Assembly (NCBI GenBank): GCA_040753475.1
Contig: JBFMED010000073.1
Location: 1 to 34,494 of the forward strand
Direction of reading: 5' to 3'
DNA length: 34,494 nt
Source of the DNA: a bacterium
GTDB taxonomy: Bacteria; UBA9089; UBA9088
The position numbers and the translations under genes were made by a program. The stretch's first letter is position 1; each line of letters starts with the position of its first letter. Shown in pieces: positions 5,761 to 27,457 of this stretch. The notes beneath the pieces are model-generated. The model was not told the DNA's origin, did not search any database, and saw only the letters and a program-made list of their open reading frames with translations.

Positions 5761-5770
5761 ATTAAGGTAA
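5740..5770 (+). repeat. Direct repeat copy 1 (TACATTGACAATAGAGGGTAAATTAAGGTAA), which contains a TTGACA-N18-TAAAAT promoter-like sequence
   Basis: Matches 6473-6503 in 29 of 31 positions. Includes the stop of the iscU-like gene. Coordinates are aligned to the ORF track (+/-1). Confidence 0.8.
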
Positions 5771-5785
5771 AATGGCAATATCTAT

Positions 5786-6480: not shown

Positions 6481-6503
6481 CAATGCAGGGTAAATTAAGG
6501 TAA
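6473..6503 (+). repeat. Direct repeat copy 2 (TACATTGACAATGCAGGGTAAATTAAGGTAA), which contains TTGACA-N18-TAATAT and is the likely thrS promoter
   Basis: The HEPN stop TGA lies inside the TTGACA. The -10 TAATAT lies at 6501-6506. Confidence 0.75.
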
Positions 6504-6523
6504 TATTATTTAGCTAATCAGAA

Positions 6524-6617
6524 TTGGATTTTAGGAATTTAGGATTTATAAATTTAGGATTTAGAAATTTTTTTCAATTGTTTTAAATCTTAAATCCTAA
6601 ATCTTAAATCCTAAATT
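6524..6617. repeat. Palindromic array of 7-8 nt tandem repeats (TAGGATT/AGGATTT on the left, TAAATCY on the right)
   Basis: Left arm 6526-6570 and right arm 6584-6617 are imperfect reverse complements built from heptamers. Preceded by TATTTAGCTA (6507-6516). Ends 6 nt before the thrS ATG. Confidence 0.8.
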
Positions 6618-6623
6618 ACTTAT

Positions 6624-8324: not shown

Positions 8325-9832
8325 AAATCGCATCGTCTAGTGAGATAAAAGAGATAGATAAAAAGGCAGGCGAATTGTATAACATCTCTCCCCTCATTTT
8401 AATGGAAAATGCTGGCATATCAGCATTTAATCTTTGTGTTTCAACCCTGAAAGAGATTGGGGGAAATAGGGTTGTTGTTTTTTGTGGTCCTGGAAATAAT
8501 GGAGGAGATGGCCTTGTTGTGGCAAGGCATTTATTTATCAAGGGATTTGATGTTAAGATTTATCTTGTAAATGGAAAAAAACAAAGACTTGAGAGAAAGA
8601 TAAACCTTGAGATTGTAAGAAAGCTTAACATCCCAATAATAGAGGAATTTGAACAAGCTGACCTTTTTGTTGATGGCTTGCTTGGAACGGGTATAGCAAA
8701 AGAGCCAGAGGGGAAAATAAGGGATTGCATTGATTTTATGAATTCTTCTGATAAAACCATTATCTCCCTTGATATTCCATCCGGGCTTTCCTCTGATTCT
8801 GGATTTTCCCTTGGATGTGCCATTAAAGCAGATAAGACAATAACCTTTGGTCTTCCAAAGATTGGCCAGGTTTTATACCCAGGCGTAGAATATGTTGGAA
8901 AGCTATATCTTTCAAGGATTTCCCTGGCCGATGAATTAAGTAAAGACATAAAGATAAACCTTTTAACTGGCTCTGAAATGGCAAGCCTTCTTCCTAAAAG
9001 ACCTTTAAACTCACACAAGGGCAATTTTGGTAAGATTCTTGTTATCGCAGGCTCGGTGGGAATGACCGGTGCGGCAACCTTATGTTGTCAGGGTGCGATG
9101 AGTATGGGAGCTGGTCTGATTTATCTTGGAATTCCAGAAAGCTTAAACGATATAATGGAAATTAAGCTTACCGAGGTGATCACAAAGCCCCTGCCAGAGA
9201 CAAAGAAAAGAACACTCTCTCCCTCTGCATACAATGGAATTATAGAGCTGGCAAAGAAATGTGATGTTTGTATAATTGGACCTGGCATATCAAGACAGGG
9301 TGAAACAAAAAAGCTTATCCAAACCCTTGTTTCAAGACTTACCATCCCCATAATCCTTGATGCAGATGGAATTTCGGCAATTTCTCCTCAAGAAATTTCT
9401 GGAAAGAATATTTTAATTACGCCACACCCAAAGGAATTGGCAGATTTTGTTAAAATAAATGTAGATGAAATTCAAAGGGATAGAATTGGAATTGTCCAAA
9501 GGGTAATGGATGAATATAAAATTTCTATCCTCCTTAAAGGATTTAGGACACTAATTGGCTACAATGGGCAAATTTACATAAACCCAAGTGGAAATCCAGG
9601 AATGGCAACCGGTGGCACAGGTGATGTTTTATCTGGAATGATTGGCTCTCTGGTTGGTCAGGGTTTAAATCTTGGTGATTCTGCTTGTCTTTCTGCCTTC
9701 CTTCACGGCTTATCAGGCGATATAGCAAAGGAGGAAAAGGGAGAATATTCCCTTATTGCATCCGACCTTATAGATTTCCTTCCTTGGGCTATAGATGAAT
9801 GTAGAGAAAAATACAATGTGGAGGGGATATAA
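8321..9832 (+). CDS. nnr: Bifunctional NAD(P)H-hydrate repair enzyme (epimerase/dehydratase, YjeF family)
   Basis: N-terminal GPGNNGGDGLVVARHL and C-terminal GGTGDVLSG kinase-fold motif. ATGA overlap with the thrS stop. Confidence 0.85.
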   Translation: MKIASSSEIKEIDKKAGELYNISPLILMENAGISAFNLCVSTLKEIGGNRVVVFCGPGNNGGDGLVVARHLFIKGFDVKIYLVNGKKQRLERKINLEIVRKLNIPIIEEFEQADLFVDGLLGTGIAKEPEGKIRDCIDFMNSSDKTIISLDIPSGLSSDSGFSLGCAIKADKTITFGLPKIGQVLYPGVEYVGKLYLSRISLADELSKDIKINLLTGSEMASLLPKRPLNSHKGNFGKILVIAGSVGMTGAATLCCQGAMSMGAGLIYLGIPESLNDIMEIKLTEVITKPLPETKKRTLSPSAYNGIIELAKKCDVCIIGPGISRQGETKKLIQTLVSRLTIPIILDADGISAISPQEISGKNILITPHPKELADFVKINVDEIQRDRIGIVQRVMDEYKISILLKGFRTLIGYNGQIYINPSGNPGMATGGTGDVLSGMIGSLVGQGLNLGDSACLSAFLHGLSGDIAKEEKGEYSLIASDLIDFLPWAIDECREKYNVEGI

Positions 9833-9847
9833 AAATGCAAAGATTAA

Positions 9848-10022
9848 AATGTCTGTATGTATTTAGCTAGGTGAGAATAAAATGGAAAATAGGCACTTAA
9901 GGCACAGAGGCACAGAGTTTATTTGTTACTTGCTTTCTTTGTGCCTTTGTCCCTTTGTTCCTTTGTGCCTGTTTACGTCCCTTTGTGCCTAGCTATAGGG
10001 TAGCTAAACACATACAATGTCT
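9848..10022. mobile_element. MITE-like non-autonomous element with 15-bp terminal inverted repeats, internal inverted octamer arrays and a 7-bp flanking direct repeat
   Basis: AATGTCT | GTATGTATTTAGCTA (9855-9869) ... TAGCTAAACACATAC (10001-10015) | AATGTCT. Inside are AGGCACWK octamers (9891-9917) and the complementary CTTTGTSC octamers (9937-9990). No ORF. Confidence 0.6.
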
Positions 10023-10042
10023 GTTGTCTGTCTTCTTAAAAT

Positions 10043-11320
10043 ATGGGAAAAACATTAGCTTGTAAAATATTATCTAAAAAGGCAGAAAAAGGGGTAAGCC
10101 CTGGCGAATTTATAGAGATAGAGCCAGATATTGCCTTGGCTAATGATGTTACCGCCCCTCTTGCCATTAAGGAATTTAAGGCTACAAATAAGCCTTTGGC
10201 ATTTCCAAACAGGCTTGTTTTGGTCTCTGACCATTTTGTTCCCGCTAGGGATATAAGGTCGGCAAATCAGGCAAAGATTTTAAGGGATTTTGCAAAGGAA
10301 TACAATATCAAACATTATTTTAAGGAGGGTTCTGGAATTGAACATTGCCTATTGCCCGATGAAGGTATTGTCCTTCCTTCTGATGTTGTAATTGGTGCGG
10401 ATTCCCATACCTGCACATACGGTGCATTAGGTGCATTTTCAACCGGTGTAGGTTCAACCGACATTGCCTATTTTATGGCAACAGGAAAAATATGGCTTAA
10501 GGTTCCTGAAAGTATGAGGATTGTCTTCAAAGGAAATCTAGCCAAATATGTCTCTGGAAAGGATTTGATTCTCTATACAATTGGAAAAATTGGGGTTGAT
10601 GGAGCAAATTATATGAGTATGGAATTTTGTGGAGATGCAATAAAAAGCCTCTCTATGGCGGGTAGATTTACAATGTGCAATATGGCAATTGAGGCAGGAG
10701 CAAAGGCGGGAATTGTTGAGCCAGATGAGAAGACGATGGAATATGTAAAGAATAGAGCACCAGAGCAGCCTACTAGCACCAGAGCACCAGACTATAAAAT
10801 ACATAAAGCTGATTCTGATGCAGAATACAAAGAAACATATGAGTTTAATTGCAGTGATATAGATTGCCAGGTAGCCTTGCCACACCTTCCGTCAAATACA
10901 AAGTCTGTAAAGGAAGTAGGCGATATTAAAATAGACCAGGCATTTATTGGCTCTTGCACAAATGGAAGGCTTGATGATTTAAGAATCTCGGCAGAAATCT
11001 TAAAAGGGAAAAAAATAAATCCCGATATCAGGCTTATCATAATCCCAGGAACACAAGAAATTTATAAAGAGGCGATAAAAGAGGGATTGATTGATGTATT
11101 CATTGATGCAGGCGGGATTATTTCCTGTCCTACCTGTGGCCCCTGCCTTGGTGGCCATATGGGTGTATTGGCAGATTTTGAAAAATGTATCTCAACCACG
11201 AATAGGAATTTTATAGGAAGGATGGGAAGCCTGAAGGGAGAGGTCTATCTGGCAGGTTCTGCTGTGGTTTCTGCTTCTGCGATTACTGGAAAGATAACCC
11301 ATCCCAATGAAGTAATATGA
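10043..11320 (+). CDS. leuC: 3-isopropylmalate/homoaconitate dehydratase large subunit (short, archaeal-type)
   Basis: Aconitase-family cluster ligand contexts DSHTCTYGALGAF, GSCTNGR and CGPCLGGH. About 420 aa. Confidence 0.85.
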   Translation: MGKTLACKILSKKAEKGVSPGEFIEIEPDIALANDVTAPLAIKEFKATNKPLAFPNRLVLVSDHFVPARDIRSANQAKILRDFAKEYNIKHYFKEGSGIEHCLLPDEGIVLPSDVVIGADSHTCTYGALGAFSTGVGSTDIAYFMATGKIWLKVPESMRIVFKGNLAKYVSGKDLILYTIGKIGVDGANYMSMEFCGDAIKSLSMAGRFTMCNMAIEAGAKAGIVEPDEKTMEYVKNRAPEQPTSTRAPDYKIHKADSDAEYKETYEFNCSDIDCQVALPHLPSNTKSVKEVGDIKIDQAFIGSCTNGRLDDLRISAEILKGKKINPDIRLIIIPGTQEIYKEAIKEGLIDVFIDAGGIISCPTCGPCLGGHMGVLADFEKCISTTNRNFIGRMGSLKGEVYLAGSAVVSASAITGKITHPNEVI

Positions 11321-11781
11321 TTGAAGGAATTGCTTATAAATTTAGGGATAATATAAATACGGATGAGATAATCCCAGCCACCTACCTTGATACAACAGAC
11401 GAAAGGGAGCTTGGCTGCCATTGTATGGAGGGAATTGAAGGAGGAACTAGGATAAAAGAGGGAGGAATTATTGTCTCTGGCTCTAATTTTGGCTGTGGCT
11501 CATCAAGGGAGCATGCACCCCTTTCTATAAAGGGAAGGGGGATAAGGGCAGTTATCGCAAAATCATTTGCCAGGATATTCTTTAGAAATAGCATAAATAT
11601 CGGGCTTTTTGTCTTTGAATGCAAAGAGGCTGATGATATAGATGGAGGAGATAAATTAAGAATATTGGAAGACAAGGGAATAATAGAGAATAGGACAAAG
11701 AATAAAACCTATAAAATAATGCCCCTTCCAGAATTTATGCAAAGAATCATTAGAGCCGGTGGCTTGATGAGGTCGCTATGA
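11317..11781 (+). CDS. leuD: 3-isopropylmalate/homoaconitate dehydratase small subunit
   Basis: NINTDEIIPA and GSNFGCGSSREHA. ATGA overlap with leuC. Confidence 0.85.
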   Translation: MIEGIAYKFRDNINTDEIIPATYLDTTDERELGCHCMEGIEGGTRIKEGGIIVSGSNFGCGSSREHAPLSIKGRGIRAVIAKSFARIFFRNSINIGLFVFECKEADDIDGGDKLRILEDKGIIENRTKNKTYKIMPLPEFMQRIIRAGGLMRSL

Positions 11782-12266
11782 TTCTTACCATAAAAAGATA
11801 CGGAAATCCCATATTGAGAAAAGAGGCATCGGATGTCAGAAAAATAGATGAGAAAATAAGAAAGATAGCATCTGATATGATAGAAACGCTCATTGCTGCT
11901 AATGGTCTTGGTCTTGCGGGAAATCAGGTTGGTATTTTGAAAAGAATAATTGTTGTGCGAATAAAAGAAAAGCCATTTGTCATTCTTAATCCAAAGGCTA
12001 TAAGCACAAGCGGAATTGTTGAAGAGGCATCTGAGGGTTGCCTGTCCTTTCCTTCCTTATTTGGCAATGTCCAAAGGGCTTTTACTATTACATTTAGGGG
12101 GCTTAATATAAACGGTGATGAGATTACAGGAGAGATAAGTGGATTACCTGCAAGGGCAATTCAGCATGAAATAGACCATCTTGACGGCATTTTGTTTATT
12201 GACAGGATGGATGAAAGCGAAAGAAAAAAGCTATTGGCTTTGTGGAGAAAGATAAAAATTACTTAA
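11778..12266 (+). CDS. def: Peptide deformylase
   Basis: GLAGNQVG, EGCLSFP and QHEIDHLDG are the three deformylase motifs. Confidence 0.9.
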   Translation: MILTIKRYGNPILRKEASDVRKIDEKIRKIASDMIETLIAANGLGLAGNQVGILKRIIVVRIKEKPFVILNPKAISTSGIVEEASEGCLSFPSLFGNVQRAFTITFRGLNINGDEITGEISGLPARAIQHEIDHLDGILFIDRMDESERKKLLALWRKIKIT

Positions 12267-12646
12267 GTCAAACATTTAATCCATATCTCCCTTTCCCTTG
12301 GTCCATCAAACTCACACAAAAATATCCTCTGCCATGTTCCCAAAACAAGCCTTTTATCCTTTACAAAAATAGAGAGAGAAGAGCCAATAATGGATGCCTT
12401 TATGTGAGCATCGGAGTTTCCCTCACTATGACGGAAATATGGGGAATCCCTTTTGATAATATTTGAAAGGCATTTTATGATATCAGAACAAACCTCTGGG
12501 TCATATCCTTCGTTTATGGTTATGGCACAGGTTGTATGGGGAACAAAGAGGTAAATAATGCCATCTTTATCTATTTCTCCTTTAATTTTTTCTGTAATAT
12601 CAACAAAAACCTCCCTCTTTGTTGTCGCTACATTTATAATCTTCAT
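12263..12646 (-). CDS. yjbQ: YjbQ/UPF0047 family protein (secondary thiamine-phosphate synthase)
   Basis: HTTCAITINE and GNSDAHIKASIIGSS. Confidence 0.75.
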   Translation of the reverse strand: MKIINVATTKREVFVDITEKIKGEIDKDGIIYLFVPHTTCAITINEGYDPEVCSDIIKCLSNIIKRDSPYFRHSEGNSDAHIKASIIGSSLSIFVKDKRLVLGTWQRIFLCEFDGPREREIWIKCLT

Positions 12647-13896: not shown

Positions 13897-13969
13897 GTTT
13901 CAAATTCATTCACTTTTAAGAAATTTTGAATTCTAAATAATGTTCTATATCCCTCCTTCTTTATTTTCA

Positions 13970-13999
13970 TTGACTTAATGTAAGAAGGGTTGATAAAAT
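13970..13999 (+). promoter_or_regulatory. Putative dedA promoter TTGACT-N18-TAAAAT (with TGn extension), with the -10 ending 6 nt before the ATG
   Basis: TTGACTtaatgtaagaagggtTGaTAAAATttttttATG. Confidence 0.45.
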
Positions 14000-14005
14000 T
14001 TTTTT

Positions 14006-14659
14006 ATGGAATTAAACATTATTAAAGATTTCGTTGATATCCTTCTTAATTTAGATAAACACCTTTCTCTGGTTATTGAAAATTATGGTCTGTGGACATA
14101 TTTAATCCTTTTCCTTATAATTTTTTGTGAAACAGGTCTTGTGGTAACCCCAATTCTTCCTGGAGATTCTTTACTTTTTGCCTCAGGGGCACTTATAGCA
14201 GGAAATGCATTAAATATACATTACCTATTCATATTGCTTAGCCTTGCGGCTATAGGAGGAGACACAGTAAATTACTGGATTGGATATTTTGTAGGACCTA
14301 AGGTATTTCATTACGAAAATGTGCGTTTCCTCAACAAAAAGCACCTTGAACGCACACATAGATTTTATGAAAAATATGGAGGAAAAACAATTGTCCTTGC
14401 CCGATTTATCCCAATTATTCGGACATTCGCACCATTTGTCGCGGGCATTGGCACAATGAGCTATAGAAAATTTATTGCTTACAATATCTTTGGGGGTATA
14501 ATGTGGATTTTAATTTTCTTATATGGTGGCTTTTATTTTGGCAACATTCCCTTAGTCAAAAGGCATTTTAGCATAGTTATTTTTGTCATCATCTTTATCT
14601 CTATCCTTCCTGGCATAATAGAATTTGTCCGCCATAAGCTTAAAAAAGTAACCACTTAA
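14006..14659 (+). CDS. dedA: DedA family membrane protein
   Basis: PGDSLLF and [16 protein letters not shown], with multiple TM segments. Confidence 0.85.
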
Positions 14660-14666
14660 CCTATCG

Positions 14667-15059
14667 TTAGTCAACAACTAATATCCCAGATGCGGCAAGA
14701 AGGAGGATAATAGCCTGTAATAAGGAAAGAAAGAAATAGATTTTATCCTTCTTTTTATAAAATATGGGAATAATCCCAAGAAAGCAGATAATTGTAATGC
14801 CCGAGAGAAAGGCAATCCCTATAAAGTTAAGGAAATCTCCATTACTAAGCAAGCTAATCCATAACCAACCCTGTGGGATGCTGGTAGCTTTAAGGTAATC
14901 CTTTGTTGACATAGCCCAGTATTTTGGAAGGGAAGAAATAGGAATGTAGGGAGGAATGATTCCAAAGATGTAGAGGATAAAGCTTATGATTAAAATAAAA
15001 AGCCCAATCCTTGTCCCTAATTTTAAAATCTTTGCATAAAGAACCTGCTCTTCCTTCAT
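14667..15059 (-). CDS. Small integral membrane protein (possibly DUF1634-like partner of TauE)
   Basis: Three to four hydrophobic helices. The ATG at 15059 overlaps the tauE stop as ATGA, and I prefer it to the TTG at 15065 in the track. The family assignment is from memory of TauE/DUF1634 gene pairs. Confidence 0.5.
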   Translation of the reverse strand: MKEEQVLYAKILKLGTRIGLFILIISFILYIFGIIPPYIPISSLPKYWAMSTKDYLKATSIPQGWLWISLLSNGDFLNFIGIAFLSGITIICFLGIIPIFYKKKDKIYFFLSLLQAIILLLAASGILVVD

Positions 15060-15904
15060 AGCCAAATCCCAAAGCCCTTGAGCAATGACCTTATCCCTAC
15101 AAAGATAAGCAAGGCAATCACGATATAGCGAATAATCTTAGGATGTGTCTTGGTAAGAAGCCTTACCCCAACCTTTGTTCCCAGCATTACCCCAAAGATA
15201 GAGGGGATAACAATCATAGGAAAAAGACAACCCTTGGTTATATAAACCCAGGCAGCCGATGTATCGGTGATGGAAAGGAGAAAAACGCTTGTTCCTACCG
15301 CAAGCTTTAAGGGAACACCCATAATTAAATTTAAAATAGAGACATTTGCCCATCCTGCACCAATCCCAAACATCCCTGCAATAAACCCAACCATGATAAA
15401 GAGAAAAAGCCCCCTTCTCATTCGGTGTATTTTCCAGTGAATCTCCTTTTCTTTTGATTCCTCATAATAGCTACCATTTATCTTAAGCAAAGAGGGAAGA
15501 CCTCCCTCCTTTTTTACGCTAGGATACTCGGTGCTTTTTGAAAGGACAAAAATTATAGCAATTGCAATCACAAGGATTCCCAAAGAGACTTGGATAATAT
15601 TGGTTGGTAAGACAAGACCAAGCATTGCCCCAAATATGGATGAGATAGAGGCTATTAAAGCACAGGGAATAGAGAGCCTTAAGTTTGCCAAGCCCTTTTC
15701 AAGGAGCTTTGGCCCGGCAGATAAAGAGCCACAAAGGGCAAGTAATAAACCACTACAACGGATGAAATCAATATGAAAGGGAAAGAAACCGCTTACTATA
15801 GGAACGAATAAAGTTCCCCCTCCCAAACCCCCCAAAACCCCAACGATTCCAATAAAAAAGCTTACAATGAATAAAATAAGGGGATAAATCCACCAATCAA
15901 TCAT
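15056..15904 (-). CDS. tauE: TauE/SafE (TSUP, DUF81) family anion permease
   Basis: GVLGGLGGGTLFVPIV in the first half and a GIGAGW-type glycine-rich helix in the second half, giving a two-repeat TM topology. I start it at MIDWW (15904), 1 nt after the upstream stop. Confidence 0.8.
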   Translation of the reverse strand: MIDWWIYPLILFIVSFFIGIVGVLGGLGGGTLFVPIVSGFFPFHIDFIRCSGLLLALCGSLSAGPKLLEKGLANLRLSIPCALIASISSIFGAMLGLVLPTNIIQVSLGILVIAIAIIFVLSKSTEYPSVKKEGGLPSLLKINGSYYEESKEKEIHWKIHRMRRGLFLFIMVGFIAGMFGIGAGWANVSILNLIMGVPLKLAVGTSVFLLSITDTSAAWVYITKGCLFPMIVIPSIFGVMLGTKVGVRLLTKTHPKIIRYIVIALLIFVGIRSLLKGFGIWL

Positions 15905-15905
15905 T

Positions 15906-16244
15906 TTAAGGATAGTAATGGCAAGAAAAGCATAATGGCTTTGCTCCAACAAAATTATGGCATCTGTTGCAAAATTCATCCCTATTTTTATGACATTCCC
16001 TACAACTTGTCAAAGTAAAAGAGCCCCTTATTCCCTCTCTCACCACCTTATCCCTTGCCTCTTTTAATAAATTCATATGGCTTGCCCTCATAACATTTCT
16101 CTCCTTTAGACATCTTCCCTTTGGAAGCTTTATCTCTGGCTCTGGAATTTTATCACTTATTCTTCCTCCCATAACATTTAGCACGAATGGGAAAGAGAAA
16201 ACCACCAAGAAAACTATCAAACCACCTATAACTAATTTATACAT
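15906..16244 (-). CDS. DsrJ-like triheme cytochrome c, second copy
   Basis: N-terminal TM anchor and three CxxCH motifs (CRECH, CNRCH, CFSCH). 57 of 77 hand-aligned C-terminal residues are identical to dsrJ at 32807-33121. The ATG at 16244 overlaps the qmoC stop by 8 nt. Confidence 0.75.
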   Translation of the reverse strand: MYKLVIGGLIVFLVVFSFPFVLNVMGGRISDKIPEPEIKLPKGRCLKERNVMRASHMNLLKEARDKVVREGIRGSFTLTSCRECHKNRDEFCNRCHNFVGAKPLCFSCHYYP

Positions 16245-17382
16245 CCCTATTATATTGTTTGGCATAGATAATGGCGATTGTGCGATAGACAAAATGGGCA
16301 AACTTTGAATATGGTGCGTAACATAAGAGAAAGAATACAGAGAGAAGGTGGATAAAATATAAGGGATAGGAAAGAATGGGTATATTCGCCCATCTTGTAA
16401 CCATTGTCAATGCTCCACAGGCAATTATTATATACAAAATAGCGATCAAAAGCCAATCAAAGTATCCACCAAGGCTATCCTTCTGGTTAATTCTGTTAAA
16501 GATTACAAGGTTTAGCCCAATGAACATAAGGATTACACCGCTATAGCCTATAAAGTTCATAATATAGGTAAGGGAATAGGAAAAACCTTGAGAAATTAGC
16601 TCTATGGGATAGAAAAACAAGAACAAATACAAATTATGGAATAGGCATATGGGATAAAACCCCTTTTTTTGCAATATCTCTAAATAAAAAATCCCACTTC
16701 CTGCTGTAATTATGAGAAGGACAAAGCCATAGAATATACATAGATGGGCATAATATCTTAATTTGTTTGTATTGCACTTTTTGAATTTGGAGTGAAGCAA
16801 TATCTCAGTTATTGTAGAGAAAATAGCCTTTATAAGACTTCCCTTTTCACCTTCCATCTTAACGCCACCTAAAAACCTCTTTATTCCTATAATAAACGAA
16901 ACAAGGCTAAAGCCAATCCCTATTGTAAAGAGTCCGCTAAGATGTAAGGGAGAAATAAAATCAGAAAAGAGAATCCCATCTTTCACATTTCTTGTCAAGG
17001 CTAATAAGATTATTAAGGGAAATCCAATAATAAGGGGAAGATACCTTGCTTTGTTGAGAAAATTTGCCAGGAATTTTGGAAAGGAATAGCTAATAATCGC
17101 AAGCCTCCTTATGGCAGAGATAACCTCACCTGGCTTTACTCCCCTTGGGCAATAGGCGGTGCAATCACCACATTGATGGCAGAGCCAGATGTCTAAATTA
17201 TTAAAGAGCTTGTCGGAAAGACCCCATTGGGCAAAGAAAATCTCCTTTCTGGGAAATGGCTTGTTTTCTGGCGAGATATTGCAAACAGCGGAACAGGTTG
17301 CACACTGAAAGCACTTCTTTAAAGAGCCTCCACCCGATGAAATTATCTCATTTATAAGCTTAATATCAGGTTTTATAATCAT
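16237..17382 (-). CDS. qmoC: Quinone-interacting membrane-bound oxidoreductase subunit QmoC (HdrC-like Fe-S domain fused to an HdrE-like cytochrome b)
   Basis: CFQCATCSAVCN and CHQCGDCTAYCP, followed by at least 5 TM helices. Positioned after qmoAB. Confidence 0.85.
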   Translation of the reverse strand: MIIKPDIKLINEIISSGGGSLKKCFQCATCSAVCNISPENKPFPRKEIFFAQWGLSDKLFNNLDIWLCHQCGDCTAYCPRGVKPGEVISAIRRLAIISYSFPKFLANFLNKARYLPLIIGFPLIILLALTRNVKDGILFSDFISPLHLSGLFTIGIGFSLVSFIIGIKRFLGGVKMEGEKGSLIKAIFSTITEILLHSKFKKCNTNKLRYYAHLCIFYGFVLLIITAGSGIFYLEILQKKGFYPICLFHNLYLFLFFYPIELISQGFSYSLTYIMNFIGYSGVILMFIGLNLVIFNRINQKDSLGGYFDWLLIAILYIIIACGALTMVTRWANIPILSYPLYFIHLLSVFFLLCYAPYSKFAHFVYRTIAIIYAKQYNRDV

Positions 17383-17751
17383 TTAATCGCCTCTTGCAAC
17401 CATCCGGATAAAATCGGTTGAGGTAAATATACCAAGCCTATCTTTACCCTCGATAACAATTCTGTGGAATCCATTCCTGTGCATATAGATTGCTGCCTTT
17501 TTTGAATCCATCTTTCCTGCCTCATCTATTGAAACTGTCTCAAGCTGCCTCTCTTTGCAGAATTCTGTTAATTTCTGTGGTGATTCCCTGTCATGCTCAG
17601 TGATTATCCCTATGGTATGGCCATTCCTATTTACTATCAAAAGACAACTCTTTCCTAAATCCCCCATCTTTTTTAAGGCATAGCTTACACTCTTATTCCA
17701 ATCTACCGTTAATAGACCCTCAAATGTTGCATAATCTACAATTGACTTCAT
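17383..17751 (-). CDS. Stand-alone CBS-pair domain protein
   Basis: 122 aa with two CBS-like halves (...LLIVNRNGHTIGIITEHD... and ...RIVIEGKDRLGIFTSTDFIRMV). There are no intergenic bases on either side: the qmoB stop ends at 17752 and the qmoC ATG is at 17382. AAGGGG SD lies inside the qmoB 3' end. Confidence 0.75.
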   Translation of the reverse strand: MKSIVDYATFEGLLTVDWNKSVSYALKKMGDLGKSCLLIVNRNGHTIGIITEHDRESPQKLTEFCKERQLETVSIDEAGKMDSKKAAIYMHRNGFHRIVIEGKDRLGIFTSTDFIRMVARGD

Positions 17752-19980
17752 CTAAAACCCCTTATATGGATTAGGACCAATCGCCTTTACCTTTTCAATA
17801 AAGCTTTCTATCATCTCTGGTATCTTGGGATAGTCTGCAATAGAGGTCTCCACCAGAGAAACCCTCTCTGCCTCAAGCCTAAGACGGTCAAGCGTTTCTT
17901 GGACTTTAGAAAGTCTATACTTTGCCAACTCGCTCCCCTTGATAAAATGGCATTGATAATCCTCGCCCAGCTTACAACCAATGAGCAAGATTCCGTCAAT
18001 TCCCTTTGACAGGGCATCGGTTACCCAGACAAGGTTCAGGCAACCAAGGCACCTTATGGGGATAAACCTTACCAAAGGGCTTATATTTTTTCGCATAATC
18101 CCTATGGTATCCAAAGCAGGATAGGCATCGTTTTCACAGGCAAAGCATAAGAATCGCATCTGGTTTTCATCCTCTGGAACATAAATAGATTTTATCATTG
18201 AGCTTATAATATCAATACTAAAGTCCTTAAATGAGACAATCCTTTCTGGGCAGGCACCCAGGCAGGTTCCGCACCTCCTGCACCTATTTGGCTTAAAGTA
18301 GGGAATCCCCTTCTCGTCCTCATCAATTGCTCCAAATGGACATTCATCGGTGCATCGCTTGCAAGCTGTGCACCTTTGCAGGAATGCCTCAGGATAGGTC
18401 ATATCCCATGCCCTTGGATGAACCGCAATCCCTTTTGCTACCTGTTCAATGCATTGTATGGCCTTTAAAGCTGCACCACCTGCATCTTCTATACATTCAC
18501 CTATATTCATTGGTGTCCTTACACATCCGGTAGAATAGACCCCGGTTCTCCTTGTCTCATAGGGAAAGCAGATAAAATTGGAATCCACAAACCCCAAGGC
18601 TTCTTCAAAAAGGGGAACCTCAGGTCCCTGCCGATATTTTAGGTTTAAGATAAAATCAGGTTTTTTTGTTTCATTTATATAGCTTGCCTTTGCCTCATCT
18701 CCCTTTAAGGCTGCCTTTGATAGACCATCAAGATAGCAAAGTGCATCCTTTGTTGAGGGAAGCATCCCTATGGCAAGGACAACAAGGTCTCCCTCAACCT
18801 CAATTACCTCCCCTAAAAGTGTATTCTCTGCCTCAAGGATGAGGCTTTCCTTCTCTTTCTTTATTGCCTTAACATCTGCCTTTGTCAATAAAATCCCAAT
18901 ATCCTCCTGGGTCTTCTTGTAAAAAAGCTCATATTGGGCGGGTGTTCTCATATCTTTATAAAAAATATAGGCAATTGAATTTTCATCCTTTTCCCTGATA
19001 TATTTTGCCTGTTTTAAAGATGTTAAGCAGCAATATGATGAGCAATAGGGTAGATGCTCTTTATCCCTAGAGCCAGCACATTGGATAAAGGCAACCCTTT
19101 TTACCGCCTTTCCATCCTTTCTTAAGAGCTTACCCTGCTTTGCCATCTCCTCAAACTCAATGTTTGTAATTACATCAGGATATATTCCATAGCCAAGATG
19201 AGAAAGCTTTGATGCATCATAGGGCTTAAATCCCGAGGCTAAAATAACAGCCCCTACTTTTCTTCTTATTTCCTCATCCTTTCTTTTTATTGAAACATCA
19301 AATACCCCAGGTTGTCCTTCAATGCTTTCTATCTCTGAATTTATTAAGACCTCAATATTTGGATGCTCATTAACTTTTTTTATCTTCTCAAAAACAATTG
19401 GTTCTCTTATTTCCTCATAGGGATATTCTGTGGGAACTTGCTTGTATAGCCTTGCTGAATACCCACCAAGGTTGTTTTCTTTTTCCACAAGGATTGTCTT
19501 ATACCCACAATCTGCCGTCTCAAGGCTGGCGGTTAATCCACTTATCCCACCACCCACAACCAGAATAGCCCTTTCTATATTTTCTTCTATATATGGCTCG
19601 GGAATATTCTGCTTAATTGCCTTAGTGATTCCCATTTTAAGATAGTCTTCGGCAATTAGCTGGGTATCTTCTCTCTTTGGTGGCTGGCAAAAAACACAAA
19701 GCTCCCTTATATTCACCCGCTCAAGGATACAATTTGGGAAATTAAACACCTCGGACTTTACCCTTCCTGAACATCCTGCAATAACCAATGTGTTTATCCC
19801 CTCCTTCTTTATATCCTCCTTTATTAAGGCAATCCCTTCATTGCATAGGACAGGGGATAGCTTAAATGATGTAATAGGAAGCTTTGTCTCCTTTGAGGCT
19901 TTCTCTATCAGCCTTTCTAAATTCAAGGATTGCTCTATACTACACCCCTTACAGATATAAATGCCTATCTTCTTATCCAT
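17752..19980 (-). CDS. qmoB: QmoB (HdrA-like flavoprotein with ferredoxin and MvhD-like domains)
   Basis: VVGGGISGLTAS FAD motif, CTACKRCTDECP and CRRCGTCLGACP, 742 aa. Overlaps the qmoA 3' end by 16 nt. Confidence 0.9.
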   Translation of the reverse strand: MDKKIGIYICKGCSIEQSLNLERLIEKASKETKLPITSFKLSPVLCNEGIALIKEDIKKEGINTLVIAGCSGRVKSEVFNFPNCILERVNIRELCVFCQPPKREDTQLIAEDYLKMGITKAIKQNIPEPYIEENIERAILVVGGGISGLTASLETADCGYKTILVEKENNLGGYSARLYKQVPTEYPYEEIREPIVFEKIKKVNEHPNIEVLINSEIESIEGQPGVFDVSIKRKDEEIRRKVGAVILASGFKPYDASKLSHLGYGIYPDVITNIEFEEMAKQGKLLRKDGKAVKRVAFIQCAGSRDKEHLPYCSSYCCLTSLKQAKYIREKDENSIAYIFYKDMRTPAQYELFYKKTQEDIGILLTKADVKAIKKEKESLILEAENTLLGEVIEVEGDLVVLAIGMLPSTKDALCYLDGLSKAALKGDEAKASYINETKKPDFILNLKYRQGPEVPLFEEALGFVDSNFICFPYETRRTGVYSTGCVRTPMNIGECIEDAGGAALKAIQCIEQVAKGIAVHPRAWDMTYPEAFLQRCTACKRCTDECPFGAIDEDEKGIPYFKPNRCRRCGTCLGACPERIVSFKDFSIDIISSMIKSIYVPEDENQMRFLCFACENDAYPALDTIGIMRKNISPLVRFIPIRCLGCLNLVWVTDALSKGIDGILLIGCKLGEDYQCHFIKGSELAKYRLSKVQETLDRLRLEAERVSLVETSIADYPKIPEMIESFIEKVKAIGPNPYKGF

Positions 19981-21239
19981 TGTATTGCTTTCATCGCAGA
20001 GGAGGTTGCCTTTCTGGTTGCCCTGGTAACATCCATCGGATTTTCGGCGACACCTGCAGCATATACACCCTTTTTTAGGGATGAATGGATAATAAACCCA
20101 TCATTATTACAAGAAAATATTCCCATTCCATCCTGACCCCTGACTCCTGACCCCTGACTCCTGACTCCTTTAATTGATGGCTGCATTCCCACCGCAAGCA
20201 CTGCCATATCCACCTTTACCTTTACCTTACTTCCTACTTCCACATCCTCTGCCTCTAAAATCACATCGCCTGTTTTATCCTCGCTAATCTTTCCCACCTT
20301 TCCCTTTATTAGATGGACATTTTTTTCATCCTCTATCTTGTTGTAAAACCTCTCATAGAATATACCGGGTGTCCTAATGTCTATATAAAATAGATAAATT
20401 TCTGCATTAGGGTTTTGCTCCTTGATGTAGGTAATCTGCTTTAAGGATGCCATACAGCAGATGTATGAGCAATAGGGAAGGTGGTTTTCATCCCTAGAGC
20501 CAGCACATTGGACAAAGGCTATTCTTTCAGGGGGCTTTCCATCTGATGGCCTTGTTATCTTGCCCTGAGTTGGGCCATTAAAAGATGCAATGCGTTCCAT
20601 CATCATATTGGTAATAACATTCTTTATCCTTCCAAAGCCAAGGTTCTCTATTTTTTCTGCCTCATAAGGCTTCCAGCCGGTTGCCCAGATAATCGAGGAT
20701 ACCTCTATTTCAATGGTTTTTGGTTGCATATCAAGCTCAATAGCAGAATATTTGCAAGCAGAAACACATTCTCCACATCTTGAGCAAACCTTATCATCAA
20801 TCACATACCTAAGGGGAAACGCCTGGTTGTAGGGGAGGTGTATGGCTTTTGTCTTGTTTAGAGAAAGGTTAAAATCATCCTCTCTTTCAACCGGGCAGAG
20901 ACTGACACACTCACCACACCCTGTGCAATTATCCTTTACATACCTTGGGTTTATTCTAATGGCTACATTAAAACCATTGCCTTTTTCCTTAATTTCTTCT
21001 ACCTCTGCCAAGGTCAAAAATGATATATTTGGATTAGCCCTCATCCTTCTTAAATTTATCTCAACACCGCAAGCAGGAGGGCAGAGCTTGGGAAAATATT
21101 TATTAAGCTGAACAACCCTTCCTCCAAGATATGGATTCTTGTCAAGAATTAAAGCCTGATAGCCGGTTTCCCCTATCTCAATGGCAGAGGTTATCCCACT
21201 AATCCCTCCGCCTACAACCAGAACATCCTTTTTTAGCAT
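19965..21239 (-). CDS. qmoA: QmoA (HdrA-like flavoprotein)
   Basis: MLKKDVLVVGGGISGITSA, CTGCGECVSLCP and CSRCGECVSACK. I place the start at 21239 (AGGA SD upstream) rather than 21293, which would overlap the upstream gene. Confidence 0.9.
   Translation of the reverse strand: MLKKDVLVVGGGISGITSAIEIGETGYQALILDKNPYLGGRVVQLNKYFPKLCPPACGVEINLRRMRANPNISFLTLAEVEEIKEKGNGFNVAIRINPRYVKDNCTGCGECVSLCPVEREDDFNLSLNKTKAIHLPYNQAFPLRYVIDDKVCSRCGECVSACKYSAIELDMQPKTIEIEVSSIIWATGWKPYEAEKIENLGFGRIKNVITNMMMERIASFNGPTQGKITRPSDGKPPERIAFVQCAGSRDENHLPYCSYICCMASLKQITYIKEQNPNAEIYLFYIDIRTPGIFYERFYNKIEDEKNVHLIKGKVGKISEDKTGDVILEAEDVEVGSKVKVKVDMAVLAVGMQPSIKGVRSQGSGVRGQDGMGIFSCNNDGFIIHSSLKKGVYAAGVAENPMDVTRATRKATSSAMKAIQWIRR
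20132..20168 (-). repeat. Five tandem CCTGACY heptamers inside the qmoA coding sequence
   Basis: Plus strand reads cctgacc cctgact cctgacc cctgact cctgact cc, translated as GVRSQGSGVRGQ in QmoA. Confidence 0.85.
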
Positions 21240-21249
21240 TCCATTCCTT

Positions 21250-22071
21250 TCATAAATGGATTCCCTTTTGTCTTGCCCTTCTGGAAAGTTCATAAGAGCG
21301 ATAGAGCTTTATGTGTGGATGTTCTTTTTTAAGATGTGCCTCTACATTAGGATGGATTGAATAACAAAGGATGAGGGGAAATACATCGGCTTTTAAGTAA
21401 TTTCTTGCCCTTTCAATAACCTTTGAAAAATCTTTAATATCATTTTTTCCTATGCTTGCTTTAGATTCTCCAATGATGTATATTTTATTTCCATTCTGCC
21501 TTGCCTCGGCATAGATATTTATCTCATCCTCACCACCCTCGGGATAGATAAAGAATCTCCTCTCAAATTCTTTTTCTATCTCAATTCCAAAATCCTTCTT
21601 TAACACATAAGGAAAGATGGAGTAGTATTTTTCCTCAAGCTCATAGCCAATGGTATTTGATATGCCACCTAATCTTTGGTCTGTTTTTTCCTGGGCAATG
21701 GCAAGCTTTTCTAACCTCTGTTCTGTTCTTTTCTGTGCCTCGGCAAGCTCTTCTACCCTTTGCTCTGTCCTTTTCTGTGCCTCGGCAAGCTCTTCTACCC
21801 TTTGCTCTGTCCTTTTCTGTGCCTCGGCAAGCTCTTCTACCCTTTGCTCTGTCCTTTTCTGTGCCTCTGCAAGCTCTTGCAAAGCTTTATCAAGCCTGCC
21901 TACCTCCTTCTGGGTTTCTTTCTGGGCCTCGGTAAGCTCTTTCTGGGCAATGGCAAGCTTCCTTACCTCATTGGTAAGGAGGTTAAACTCTTCCCTATCT
22001 ACCCTTATACCCTTTGTTTTTTCCTCTACAATGGTTTCTATTGTTTTATAAAGCTCAAGATCTATAGCCAT
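21250..22071 (-). CDS. Coiled-coil protein with a C-terminal PD-(D/E)xK-like (restriction-endonuclease-fold) domain, function unknown
   Basis: [14 protein letters not shown] repeats form a long heptad-rich helix. The C-terminus has GGEDEINIY...[14 protein letters not shown] (D...ExK). I start it at MAIDLE (22071), because the track's TTG at 22107 is part of a TTGACA -35 box. Confidence 0.6.
21739..21864 (-). repeat. Three perfect 42-bp tandem repeats, flanked by degenerate copies
   Basis: ctcggcaagctcttctaccctttgctctgtccttttctgtgc occurs three times with no mismatch. It encodes [14 protein letters not shown]. Confidence 0.95.
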
Positions 22072-22077
22072 ATTTTT

Positions 22078-22107
22078 ATTATAACCTTTAGGCCAATCTT
22101 CTGTCAA
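22078..22107 (-). promoter_or_regulatory. Consensus sigma70 promoter TTGACA-N18-TATAAT, with the -10 ending 6 nt before the ATG at 22071
   Basis: Minus strand reads TTGACAgaagattggcctaaaggtTATAATaaaaatATG. Confidence 0.55.
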
Positions 22108-22195
22108 TCTTATTACGGAATTTTTATCTGATATTTCAAGATTTCTTCATCCGTTTTTTCTCTAATAATTTTGGCATTGGCTTCCTTTATAAATC

Positions 22196-24136
22196 CTAAA
22201 CCACCAGCTGCTTATACTCTCTTTTAAAGATCTCAAACTTTCCGGTTTGGCTATTGTATTTGGAATTGACAAAGCATTTCCAATTACTATCATCAATCTT
22301 GGGAAAATCTGCTCTATAATAATAGCCAGGATACCTTGTCTCCTCCCGAAAGAGCATATGCCTGATATGAGCCTCAGCGGTTAAGATTCTATGCCTGTTT
22401 TCCCAGGCCCTCATCAGCTCATGGAGGTTTTCTGCCGCTAATCTATCTGAATCCTCCTTTGCCATTTCCAATAGCTCTAAGCCCTTTTCCATCATTGTTC
22501 TGCTCGTGATATACCAGGTGCTTACCCCTCCCGCATACTCATCCATAATCTTCATCACCCTTGGCTGTAATTGCTTTGGTCTAATATAATTGGGGTTTAT
22601 ATCAGCCGCGGTAGTATAGCCCTTGTATTTCTCATAAAGCTCAAAGGGAAGGCAGATCTCTTTGGCAAATTCCTCAATTGGCTTGGTGATGGTCGGGGTA
22701 AACCCGGAATGGTCAAGACAAAAGGCAACCATTGCTTTTGCCGCAATCCTTCCATCGGCATGTGAGCCAGATGAGAATTTATGACCCGAGGCACCTACGC
22801 CATCGCCGGCGGTGAATAGCCCCTTAACGGTTGTCATTCTATTATAGCCCCATTGCCATTCAGGGGGTGCGATGTCAGATGGCCCACTTACCCAAAAGCC
22901 TGAACAAGCGGCATGTGAACCAATAAAGTATGGCTCGGTAGGCATCATCTCAGATGGCTTTTCCTCTGGAGCAATATTATTGGTTGCCCAAACACCTGCT
23001 TGGGCAATGGTCATATCCAGAAAATCCTCCCAGGCGGCATTTTCCATCTCCTTTGCCAATTTTGCATCCTTTGCCCTCATTGCTTGAATAGCATCCTGTG
23101 TATGCATAAAAACAGGACCCTTTCCTGCCTTTAGCTCCTCAATCATTTGGTGGTTCCTTAAGCAGGTGGGAACCGGCTTTATATCGCAATATGGGGCATA
23201 TTGCTTGATTACCGGGGATTGGGTATAATCCTCACCTAAAGCATTGGTTGCCTTGCATTTTAAATAAAGGAAGAATGTTCCCACCGGGCCATAGCCATCC
23301 TTAAACCTGGTTGGAACAAATACATTCTCCATCATAGTAAGCTCTGCCCCTACCAGAAGCCCCATTGTGGTAGTTGAGCTTGAATTCCATACTGGATACC
23401 AGGTTCTTCCTAAACCCTCATCGGTTGCCCTAGGTCTATAGGTATTTACGCCGCCACCACAGGCATTAAGCACAACCTTTGCCTTAAAGAGGTAGCACTT
23501 GTAATCCCTGACAGAAAAACCAACCGCGCCAGCAATCCGATTATCCTCCTTCTCATCAAGGATGAGATGGGTAATAAAGACCCTCTCGTATAAATTTTGT
23601 GCCATCCCTGTCTTTTCTCGGTTGTATTCCAATACCTTCTTTGCTGCCTCGGCTACAATAACTTTGTATGACTCTCCGCTAATCATTGCCTGCCATCTGC
23701 CTGAGCGAACACACCTTGCCCCATCCCCAAGTTTTTTCTCCTCCTCTCCCTCGTTTTTCCAGAGGGGAAGCCCCCATTCGTCAAAGAGATAGACAGAATC
23801 ATCAACATGCCTTCCGATATCATAGACAATGTCCTCCCTGATTATACCCATTAGGTCTCCACGCACATAATTGACATAGTCTTCTACTGTATTTTCACCC
23901 ACATTTAAGCCAATGTAGGTGTTTATGGCAGAAAGACCCATTGCCACAGTGCCTGAGCGGTCTAATGCCGCCTTATCCACTAAGGTTACCTTTATTCCCT
24001 TTGGTGTTGCCCATCTGCAAGCCTCATAAGCTGCACCACAATTAGCCATTCCACCACCGACAAGCAGAATATCTGTCTCTATTGTTTCCATTTCTGGTGG
24101 CTTGGCATAACTAAATATATTAACCTCTTTTTCCAT
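22196..24136 (-). CDS. aprA: Adenylylsulfate (APS) reductase alpha subunit
   Basis: ILLVGGGMANCGAA FAD motif, 646 aa, immediately downstream of aprB. Confidence 0.92.
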   Translation of the reverse strand: MEKEVNIFSYAKPPEMETIETDILLVGGGMANCGAAYEACRWATPKGIKVTLVDKAALDRSGTVAMGLSAINTYIGLNVGENTVEDYVNYVRGDLMGIIREDIVYDIGRHVDDSVYLFDEWGLPLWKNEGEEEKKLGDGARCVRSGRWQAMISGESYKVIVAEAAKKVLEYNREKTGMAQNLYERVFITHLILDEKEDNRIAGAVGFSVRDYKCYLFKAKVVLNACGGGVNTYRPRATDEGLGRTWYPVWNSSSTTTMGLLVGAELTMMENVFVPTRFKDGYGPVGTFFLYLKCKATNALGEDYTQSPVIKQYAPYCDIKPVPTCLRNHQMIEELKAGKGPVFMHTQDAIQAMRAKDAKLAKEMENAAWEDFLDMTIAQAGVWATNNIAPEEKPSEMMPTEPYFIGSHAACSGFWVSGPSDIAPPEWQWGYNRMTTVKGLFTAGDGVGASGHKFSSGSHADGRIAAKAMVAFCLDHSGFTPTITKPIEEFAKEICLPFELYEKYKGYTTAADINPNYIRPKQLQPRVMKIMDEYAGGVSTWYITSRTMMEKGLELLEMAKEDSDRLAAENLHELMRAWENRHRILTAEAHIRHMLFREETRYPGYYYRADFPKIDDSNWKCFVNSKYNSQTGKFEIFKREYKQLVV

Positions 24137-24139
24137 AAT

Positions 24140-24580
24140 TTACCTCCCTATTGTTGGCAGGGTTTCACCCCTGGCTTGCTGGGTAAAGAACCCAGGCTCT
24201 TTTATCCTTGCGTAATCAGGCTCGCCCTTTCCTCCATAAGGGTCAATTGAGCCCTCTGGCGTTGTCCTTATCGGGAATTTAAACCGCTTAAGCCTTCCAT
24301 CCCTGAACTTAATCGTCCACATTATGGAATCAGAGCCCCTTAAGGGAATAACGCTTCCACCCAAGGGGTTAAAATCCGTATAACCCCTTACCTCTATAGC
24401 CTGCTGGGGGCATATCTTAACACAATTGTAGCACTCCCAACATTGATTAGGCTCCTGGTTATGAGCCTTCATCTTCTCTCTATCCAAGACCAAAAGGTCA
24501 TTTGGGCAGATATACTGACAGGCAGTCTTATCCTGTCCCTTACAACCATCGCATTTCTCAGCGATTACAAAACTTGGCAT
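24140..24580 (-). CDS. aprB: APS reductase beta subunit
   Basis: MPSFVIAEKCDGCKG...CQYICP and CWECYNCVKICP. I start it at 24580 (AAGGGGG SD), downstream of the sat stop. Confidence 0.9.
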   Translation of the reverse strand: MPSFVIAEKCDGCKGQDKTACQYICPNDLLVLDREKMKAHNQEPNQCWECYNCVKICPQQAIEVRGYTDFNPLGGSVIPLRGSDSIMWTIKFRDGRLKRFKFPIRTTPEGSIDPYGGKGEPDYARIKEPGFFTQQARGETLPTIGR

Positions 24581-24596
24581 TTTTTTTACCCCCTTT

Positions 24597-25814: not shown

Positions 25815-25825
25815 ATCTTTACCTC

Positions 25826-27453
<1,628 letters not shown>

Positions 27454-27457
<4 letters not shown>

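Follow-up and report, generated by a model that had tools for sequence, protein, structure and literature searches.

How electrons are supplied to adenosine 5'-phosphosulfate (APS) reductase, AprBA, and whether energy is conserved at that step, has long been an open question of sulfate respiration. QmoC, the membrane subunit of the QmoABC complex, consists of an HdrC-like domain fused to a dihaem membrane module of the HdrE/DsrM type (PMC10504309). Menaquinol-driven reduction of APS through QmoC is considered thermodynamically marginal or endergonic, which is debated, nor has electrogenic activity been shown for Qmo (PMC10553843). The question arises again in a complete 34,494-bp contig (JBFMED010000073.1; hereafter the window, meaning this whole stretch of DNA) of one NCBI metagenome-assembled genome (MAG; GCA_040753475.1) labelled 'bacterium' (locus tags AB1595_...). 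Here a gene for a triheme cytochrome c of the DsrJ family, which we call dsrJ2, begins inside the end of qmoC. An earlier sequence-only reading of this DNA had pointed out that the described Qmo has no periplasmic haem subunit, which holds in the literature that we searched. Does QmoC have such a partner in this uncultured sulfate-reducing bacterium?

dsrJ2 is intact and under selection, overlaps the stop codon of qmoC, has no ribosome-binding site of its own and encodes the canonical haem-ligand set of DsrJ, and junctions of qmoC with a dsrJ gene recur elsewhere. We see an even chance that DsrJ2 is a functional periplasmic haem-c partner of QmoC, as DsrJ is for DsrM, and that it would be fed through DsrOP. 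The precedent is a cryo-electron microscopy preprint on DsrMKJOP from A. fulgidus, in which DsrJ contacts the periplasmic face of DsrM, its anchor touches DsrM, menaquinone lies in the DsrM/DsrJ cleft, DsrO gives an axial His to one DsrJ haem, and electrons are proposed to run DsrP-DsrO-DsrJ-DsrM-DsrK (bioRxiv 10.64898/2026.08.25.746951). According to the same source, growth is abolished by deletion of dsrJ and not by mutation of its Cys ligand, and the complex of cable bacteria is DsrMKJ, lacking OP.

An intact dsrJ gene overlaps the stop codon of qmoC

The gene dsrJ2 (15906-16244, minus strand) lies after qmoC and before tauE, not within dsrMKJOP, and encodes a triheme cytochrome c with a membrane anchor, 112 amino acids long, recognised as a DsrJ paralog by its CxxCH motifs, the NCBIfam DsrJ model and the invariant columns of the family. 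The NCBI annotation has the same 112-aa product (AB1595_02625). Its start and the qmoC stop overlap by 8 nt, ATGTATAA (16237-16244, minus strand), as read directly from the sequence: the 3' end of qmoC is ...AAT AGG GAT GTA TAA, and the ATG of dsrJ2 (16244-16242) lies inside GAT GTA. No Shine-Dalgarno motif is found at normal spacing before dsrJ2, whereas dsrA, dsrB, sat and aprA have strong ones. The motif is likewise missing before dsrJ1, the operon-internal DsrJ gene of which dsrJ2 is a paralog (32807-33121, minus strand), which has a 4-nt overlap with dsrK. Downstream, a single base separates the dsrJ2 stop codon (TAA) from the ATG of tauE at 15904, and the stop of tauE and the next ATG share ATGA. 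Both the 8-nt overlap and this tight spacing had been claimed before, and both are borne out by the letters. To judge from this arrangement, dsrJ2 is translationally coupled to qmoC.

The product has the features that had been read from it, namely an N-terminal anchor, three haem motifs (CRECH, CNRCH and CFSCH) and a PKG(R/K)C motif, here PKGRC. The CxxCH columns are invariant in DsrJ alignments of 20 and of 51 sequences, and DsrJ2 retains all 18 of the 18 columns invariant among 20 diverse DsrJs, which include nine haem-motif residues, Cys45 (the conserved Cys distal ligand), Met52 and His56. Topology prediction gives one N-terminal membrane helix: hydropathy has a single peak at residues 4-22, and in an AlphaFold2 monomer made from the 51-sequence alignment (mean pLDDT 69, pTM 0.40) the anchor helix alone, residues 2-27, is confident (block pLDDT 91-94). 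On the NCBIfam DsrJ model (NF038038, cut-off 100 bits) DsrJ2 scores 87.5 bits and DsrJ1 76.2, both under the cut-off, and the DsrJ of one qmoC-dsrJ-dsrO locus scores 71.4. Because the bona fide operon copy DsrJ1 also falls below, the cut-off leaves out this whole branch. A look-up of the exact protein returned no record, and a sequence search of the PDB with DsrJ2 returned no DsrJ structure, only a spurious match to a cytochrome c555 repeat.

By BLASTP, DsrJ2 and DsrJ1 share 65 of 105 residues (62%, E = 2e-46), and over the haem domain, the C-terminal 77 residues, 57 are identical (74%), the same count that had been obtained by hand. The two genes differ with dN/dS 0.27 at dS 1.1, and the codon is shared at 40 of 63 conserved residues, so that recent gene conversion is not indicated. 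The first two values point to an old, selected paralog: dsrJ2 is, on this comparison, an old duplicate under purifying selection that has not been recently converted. Together with the 18 invariant columns kept, the same ratio argues that it is not a chance open reading frame (ORF). Divergence is uneven along the gene. Nucleotide identity between the two copies, in windows of 30 nt, is 67-87% in the haem domain and 23-47% in the anchor and linker, and the linker of DsrJ2 is 5 residues longer. Anchor and linker have diverged from DsrJ1 far more than those of P0003, a DsrJ from a canonical dsrC-dsrMKJOP locus that is 73% identical to DsrJ1. Such a pattern fits a changed membrane partner and a retained face towards DsrO, although anchors evolve fast anyway.

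Junctions of qmoC and dsrJ in other genomes and the origin of dsrJ2

A survey of gene neighbourhoods shows that the DsrJ family does co-occur with qmoC elsewhere. A scan of metagenome contigs from the Joint Genome Institute with a six-sequence DsrJ alignment gave 80 loci, where the gene directly upstream of dsrJ is qmoC in 36, dsrK in 35 and undecidable in 9 (36/71 classifiable). This roughly 50:50 split is not an unbiased frequency, since both search patterns gave preference to short-type DsrJs and a qmoC-linked sequence was among the six seeds. The statement that DsrJ is not known outside DsrMKJOP thus stands for the literature searched and fails for sequence data, given these 36 of 80 loci. 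Among the 36, dsrO comes next in 31 and the contig ends in the other 5. In 25/36 the qmoC stop shares bases, mostly 4 nt, with a start codon of the dsrJ frame. L165 and L166, among many others, have 4-nt overlaps.

Long metagenome contigs carry the full order qmoA-qmoB-qmoC-dsrJ-dsrO-dsrP. The six-gene operon occupies positions 5009-12389 of locus L164, 5088-12373 of L165 and 5140-12549 of L166, and twelve further loci contain qmoABC-dsrJOP (L086, L089, L097, L100, L108, L110, L114, L132, L134, L145, L152 and L156). Some of these operons stand within apr/sat clusters: L134 reads aprA...qmoABC-dsrJOP-sat...dsrMK, with dsrMK about 3 kb downstream of dsrJOP, L145 reads aprA...qmoABC-dsrJOP-sat, and L089 has aprBA downstream. 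Others stand alone. In candidate division LCP-89 (GCA_005223185.1), in a Zixibacteria genome (GCA_043819555.1) and in one locus found on 17 contigs, qmoABC-dsrJOP is followed by genes for a PAS histidine kinase and a response regulator, and none of dsrAB, dsrMK, apr or sat lies within 10 kb on either side. A profile of the qmoC-linked DsrJs matches 890 proteins at E <= 1e-10, nearly all unnamed or 'hypothetical'; those with a named source come from Zixibacteria, candidate division LCP-89, Ca. Electryonea clarkiae (Electryoneota) and MAGs of Planctomycetota. As the sequence-only reading had supposed, we found no publication on qmoC-dsrJ or qmoABC-dsrJOP in the literature searched, exclusive of the synteny table of PMC10504309, which probably contains cases.

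DsrJ2 itself does not belong to this group. In a neighbour-joining tree of the DsrJ haem domain, short and distance-based (65 sequences, 85 columns, 200 bootstraps), every qmoC-linked DsrJ falls in one clade (88% bootstrap) from which DsrJ2 is absent, so that it is no orthologue of those proteins. DsrJ2, DsrJ1 and P0003 form a group of their own (76%), with DsrJ2 as sister to the other two (66%), and this trio joins the DsrJs of L084 and L085 (67%), both from loci ordered dsrMKJOP-dsrAB-gltD like the window. The signatures agree: PFLExPD...YMR(Y/F)HHWELL...NAVSLxPDCFGCHYYP in qmoC-linked DsrJs, and PE(L/I)xLPKGxC...MRxxHMxLL...NFxGxKPLCFxCHYYP in DsrJ1 and DsrJ2. On this tree, which a likelihood analysis would need to confirm, DsrJ2 is a lineage-specific duplicate of the dsrK-linked DsrJ of the dsr operon, now placed behind qmoC. 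Its grouping and its signature therefore speak for a junction of qmoC and dsrJ that arose a second time, independently. The branching also gives a weak indication that the duplication is older than the split from the organism of P0003. Closer relatives were sought in two collections: among 5.8 billion clustered proteins, a word-indexed search yielded DsrJ2 itself, DsrJ1, P0003 (61%) and P0004 (49%) and no others, and among 1.84 billion representatives, searched exhaustively with HMMER, no protein beyond the cluster of DsrJ2 itself exceeded 50% identity. The short contigs that carry P0004 read [qmoC 3' half]-dsrJ-dsrO, and their qmoC part scores 163 bits on the qmoC model.

The QmoC of the window (16237-17382, minus strand) has an HdrC-like FeS domain and a six-helix dihaem-b membrane domain and scores 359.3 bits on the NCBIfam qmoC model (NF038018, cut-off 300). 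A DsrM cross-matches this model, and BLASTP shows a motif match too; in the PDB, HdrC was the sole match to QmoC. Mean identity is 46% to 80 QmoC proteins without a linked dsrJ (Nitrospirota-type) and 36% to 23 dsrJ-linked ones. The latter have in common a His-rich loop, LHYxRxEPHRH, between transmembrane helices TM5 and TM6, predicted to be periplasmic, which may be the DsrJ interface or a ligand site in these proteins. At that place (residues 328-340, 16363-16401) the window has TRWANIPILSY instead, resembling QmoCs without a linked dsrJ, which have (T/L)RLxxxxxLAY. The predicted periplasmic TM3-TM4 loop (residues 234-278, 16549-16683, minus strand; placed by hydropathy topology only) is the longest seen, with 45 residues; the 23 dsrJ-linked QmoCs have 23 there and the 80 without a linked dsrJ have 19-38. 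It is hydrophobic and contains one His and one Cys. Any tie of this loop to DsrJ2 would be speculative, and we take its length as a lead only because the region is variable. In the 80 GTDB-species loci with the closest QmoC (mostly Nitrospirota, some Desantisbacteria; 40-48% identity), the gene after qmoC encodes an H+-pyrophosphatase in about 32 and a CBS-pair protein in 22. The CBS-pair proteins encoded directly after qmoC have 142-148 aa (loci including L019, L021, L028, L032, L033, L035, L043, L044 and L046).

The surrounding sulfur gene cluster and the tauE pair

dsrJ2 is part of one compact cluster on the minus strand, from 34443 down to 14667, whose 20 genes all run in the same direction with gaps of 0-4 nt between neighbours. 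Its first part comprises dsrK, dsrJ1, dsrO, a DUF6036 nucleotidyltransferase gene, dsrP, a retropepsin-like gene, dsrA, dsrB and a gltD/dsrL-like gene, and its second part sat, aprB, aprA, a coiled-coil repeat gene, qmoA, qmoB, a CBS-domain gene, qmoC, dsrJ2, tauE and a gene for a 130-aa membrane protein. A convergent dedA gene (14006-14659) marks its end, and housekeeping genes occupy the other side of the contig. The base composition of the window is even, with no indication of a foreign insert, and an Rfam scan of the window gave zero matches. Promoter and terminator scans of 13900-22400 gave counts at the level of shuffled sequence, with no noteworthy terminator between qmoC and the small gene.

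qmoA (19965-21293, minus strand), whose true start is probably downstream of 21293, encodes an HdrA-like flavoprotein with HdrA-family matches and 44-54% identity to the QmoA of other loci. qmoB (17752-19980, minus strand) encodes another, with a C-terminal FlpD/MvhD-like domain (Pfam FlpD 125 bits, Pyr_redox_2, Fer4), 46-55% identical to QmoB of other qmoABC loci. The two are adjacent and linked to sat-aprB-aprA, as members of QmoABC are. The CBS-domain gene (17383-17751, minus strand; Pfam CBS E = 6e-10) fits between qmoB and qmoC with a 0-nt gap on either side, and we infer that its product could sense adenine nucleotides, for example adenosine monophosphate, the product of APS reduction. 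A gene for a 285-aa coiled-coil protein with four tandem 14-residue repeats and a weak DUF3782 match (21250-22107, minus strand) separates aprA from qmoA. A perfect 12/12 sigma-70 consensus (TTGACA-18-TATAAT, 22107-22078) lies at its 5' end and could be an internal promoter of the qmo part of the cluster.

In the dsr part, dsrO (32159-32803, minus strand; NCBIfam DsrO 226.6 bits, cut-off 200) is the sole dsrO on the contig and a candidate shared partner of DsrJ2. dsrP (30308-31489, minus strand), for the NrfD-type quinol-interacting membrane subunit, has NCBIfam DsrP as its top match (94 bits, under the cut-off), and its product is 55-56% identical to DsrP from related dsrMKJOP loci. A DUF6036-type nucleotidyltransferase gene (31528-31983, minus strand; Pfam E = 7e-9) splits dsrO from dsrP, whereas dsrMKJOP is normally uninterrupted. 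A gene for a retropepsin-like aspartic protease (29917-30306, minus strand) lies between dsrP and dsrA, which it overlaps by 8 nt; a similar one is found upstream of qmoA in metagenome locus L123 (271-657). Between dsrB and sat, a gene for a 543-aa gltD/NAD(P)-binding FeS flavoprotein (25826-27457, minus strand; NF009410, 569 bits) may have a DsrL-type identity, and the order dsrAB-gltD is also that of L084.

Behind dsrJ2, tauE (15056-15904, minus strand) encodes a 282-aa permease of the TSUP family (PF01925) that covers the whole Pfam TauE profile (127.7 bits, gathering threshold 32.6), its start backed by a homologue of 87.5% identity with the same first residue. The last co-directional gene (14667-15059, minus strand), with the ATGA overlap to tauE, encodes a DUF1634-like membrane protein of 130 aa with 3-4 predicted helices. 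Its match to Pfam DUF1634 (PF07843) spans profile positions 3-100 of 102 at E = 0.013 and 16.1 bits, below the gathering threshold of 27.5. It has 546 homologues, mostly from Nitrospirota, and one of them, 58% identical, is named a DUF1634 domain protein in UniRef.

The small gene follows tauE in 5/5 other loci examined, where the neighbours differ. In a sister MAG from the same study (GCA_040753555.1; L169 500-3434) the order is gltD-like-tauE-small without qmoC or dsrJ, with identities of 87.5% for tauE, 67% for the small protein and 65% for gltD. In Dissulfurispira thermophila (AP022873.1; L171 7026-10924) it is GntR-tauE-small-Usp-CBS-DASS transporter (tauE 60%, small 58%). L071 reads qmoABC-tauE-small (58% and 51%), and L123 reads qmoABC-dsrJOP-MOT1-type transporter-two small ORFs-tauE-small (64% and 47%). 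The D. thermophila locus links the pair to sulfate transport genes (DASS being the Na+/sulfate symporter family) in a cultured sulfur disproportionator. The functional tie to the permease that the sequence-only reading had proposed is thus weak, the pair being self-standing, after a gltD-like gene in one genome and beside a DASS transporter in another. It is best seen as a separate conserved module that shares the transcript, not as a specific partner of DsrJ2, and is probably a sulfur-oxyanion transporter, often near sulfur genes, in agreement with what is said more generally of TSUP proteins in sulfate reducers (PMC5840216).

Comparison of the sister MAG with window positions 14667-27457 shows that the 3' end of gltD and the AGGAGG after it are conserved. 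The roughly 9.9-kb block sat-aprBA-coiled-coil-qmoAB-CBS-qmoC-dsrJ2 has therefore been inserted in one of the two genomes or deleted from the other, and dsrJ2 travels with the sat-apr-qmo genes, not with tauE. In the gltD-tauE spacer of the sister MAG, where a remnant of dsrJ2 was sought, the local alignment score was not above that of shuffles. The spacer holds a 33-aa ORF (L169 2093-2194), MRKLNTYDFVKTEEKLCPTCKRKERARGFLLNA, whose end overlaps the tauE start by 8 nt, like qmoC and dsrJ2, and whose similarity to dsrJ2 is not significant.

Possible roles of DsrJ2 and comparison with known systems

If DsrJ2 serves Qmo, it would be made together with QmoC as a membrane-anchored periplasmic triheme cytochrome c and would dock on the periplasmic side of QmoC. 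Electrons would enter on that side; their likeliest source would be menaquinol, oxidised at DsrP, by way of DsrO, with DsrJ2 using the single DsrOP set encoded beside dsrMK-dsrJ1 or, alternatively, another periplasmic donor. They would pass from DsrJ2 to the haems b and then the FeS centres of QmoC, on to QmoB/QmoA and finally to AprBA, reducing APS, if the direction is as drawn. A Qmo variant with a periplasm-facing cytochrome, as proposed in the sequence-only reading, is still the best reading, on the strength of the coupling to qmoC, the junctions elsewhere and the precedent of DsrJ on DsrM.

Several observations weigh against it. None of the 80 loci with the closest QmoC has a DsrJ-like gene, or an ORF with at least two CxxCH motifs, directly after qmoC. 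The exact arrangement of the window is found in one MAG only. The possibility that the QmoC of the window carries the signature of dsrJ-linked QmoCs was rejected: of 38 discriminating columns, 7 are in the dsrJ-linked state, the His-rich loop is missing, and by its sequence it is of the ordinary Nitrospirota-like type. Like all DsrJs, DsrJ2 has one conserved internal distal His only, and dsrOP does not follow its gene; with a single internal His it probably needs the His of DsrO, and the only dsrO and dsrP of the window are 14-16 kb upstream, with dsrMK-dsrJ1. Finally, since dsrMK lies within a few kb of qmoABC-dsrJOP in some loci (L134), the adjacency could be gene order in a supercluster and not the mark of a Qmo-DsrJ complex.

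Much of this would also suit the main rival, an alternative DsrJ isoform of DsrMKJOP, made for example under other conditions, whose place after qmoC is an accident of a packed sulfur supercluster. That DsrJ2 is phylogenetically of the dsrK-linked type, nearest to DsrJ1 and P0003, that its haem domain probably keeps the DsrO-facing surface (57/77 residues shared with DsrJ1), that QmoC has no dsrJ-type signature, that gaps of 0-4 nt make coupling to the upstream gene the norm throughout this cluster, and that L134 has dsrJOP after qmoC and dsrMK on one contig all favour it. We nevertheless regard it as rather unlikely: a redundant isoform is not expected to last to dS of about 1 with dN/dS 0.27, the anchor, which in DsrJ contacts DsrM, has diverged with its linker far more than in P0003, and a qmoC-dsrJ junction has evolved independently with overlapping starts conserved across a large clade, stand-alone operons without dsrMK within 10 kb included.

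The tight spacing of dsrJ2, tauE and the small gene, the His/Cys haems known from SoxAX and TsdA and the return of tauE-small near qmoABC in L071 and L123 would be in keeping with a set formed by DsrJ2, the TauE permease and the DUF1634-like protein, where the His/Cys haem reacts with a periplasmic sulfur compound (sulfite, thiosulfate) moved by the permease. This is very improbable, as no cytochrome accompanies the closest pair, that of the sister MAG, or the pairs of Dissulfurispira and L071, mutation of the DsrJ Cys ligand has no effect on sulfate or sulfite respiration, and DsrMKJOP uses neither thiosulfate nor sulfite as donor. Least probable of all, and already disfavoured, is a decaying or silent duplicate without a role. 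The restriction of dsrJ2 to a single MAG, with no orthologue in either of the two protein collections searched, would be expected of one; its invariant residues and haem motifs are all intact, however, its dN/dS against dsrJ1 is 0.27 at dS 1.1, its frame is open inside an operon with overlapping stops and starts, and the tree suggests, weakly, that it is older than the split from the P0003 organism.

We return to DsrJ2 as a partner of QmoC and to what it would mean. The linkage of DsrJ to qmoC offers a concrete, testable alternative for the electron supply of APS reductase, in which Qmo is fed by the quinol-oxidising DsrOP/DsrJ module that the 2026 structure assigned to DsrMK. The enigmatic DsrJOP module would gain a second client. 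The supplement to PMC10504309 reports that type I QmoABC and DsrJOP are co-distributed, which comes closest in the literature searched and would then be explained, and hundreds of MAG operons annotated 'hypothetical protein' would be flagged as a distinct respiratory complex. A broader proposal, that in many bacteria Qmo is fed through DsrJ(-DsrOP) docked on QmoC, as a mirror of the DsrP-DsrO-DsrJ-DsrM path, and not by menaquinol at QmoC, the window being a second, independent origin by duplication of the dsr-operon DsrJ, we advance tentatively, as possible and somewhat doubtful. It would imply selection for haem-c input to QmoC and a QmoABC-DsrJ(-OP) supercomplex that links APS reduction (or the oxidation of sulfite) with the oxidation of quinol at DsrP, and hence with energy conservation.

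Compared with the DsrJ of DsrMKJOP (NF038038; A. vinosum, D. vulgaris, A. fulgidus), DsrJ2 is alike in size, signal-anchor helix, three CxxCH motifs, Cys/His ligand, Met52 and His56, and in translational coupling to the upstream gene. Unlike it, DsrJ2 is encoded after qmoC and not dsrK, dsrO and dsrP are not next, it is a second genomic copy, and it has a diverged anchor and a longer linker. The window resembles the QmoABC of the D. vulgaris and A. fulgidus type, the donor to AprBA, in having qmoA, qmoB and qmoC directly downstream of sat-aprBA and a QmoC above the equivalog cut-off. It departs from the described complex, which has no periplasmic or haem-c subunit, in the triheme cytochrome gene that overlaps the qmoC stop and in the CBS gene between qmoB and qmoC. 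With the TauE/SafE and DUF1634 pair conserved in Nitrospirota and relatives it shares a 282-aa TSUP permease followed by an overlapping gene for a membrane protein of about 130 aa; here the small protein is under the DUF1634 cut-off and the pair is joined to the end of a qmo operon.

The DsrMKJ of cable bacteria is similar in that a DsrJ goes with a dihaem-b membrane subunit and has no DsrOP genes of its own adjacent. There, however, the partner is DsrM and DsrOP homologues belong to a separate complex, whereas QmoC is the presumed partner in the window, which has a normal dsrMKJOP besides. A qmoC-coupled paralog of DsrJ alone is so far unique to the MAG of the window, and the class with qmoABC-dsrJOP is much larger and apparently undescribed. 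These operons, from MAGs of Zixibacteria, LCP-89, Electryoneota and Planctomycetota, match the window in a DsrJ-type gene directly after qmoC, usually overlapping it, and in some cases in a location within apr/sat clusters. They differ from it in that dsrO and dsrP come next, in their separate DsrJ clade (PFLExPD...YMRxHHWELL) and in the His-rich loop of their QmoC.

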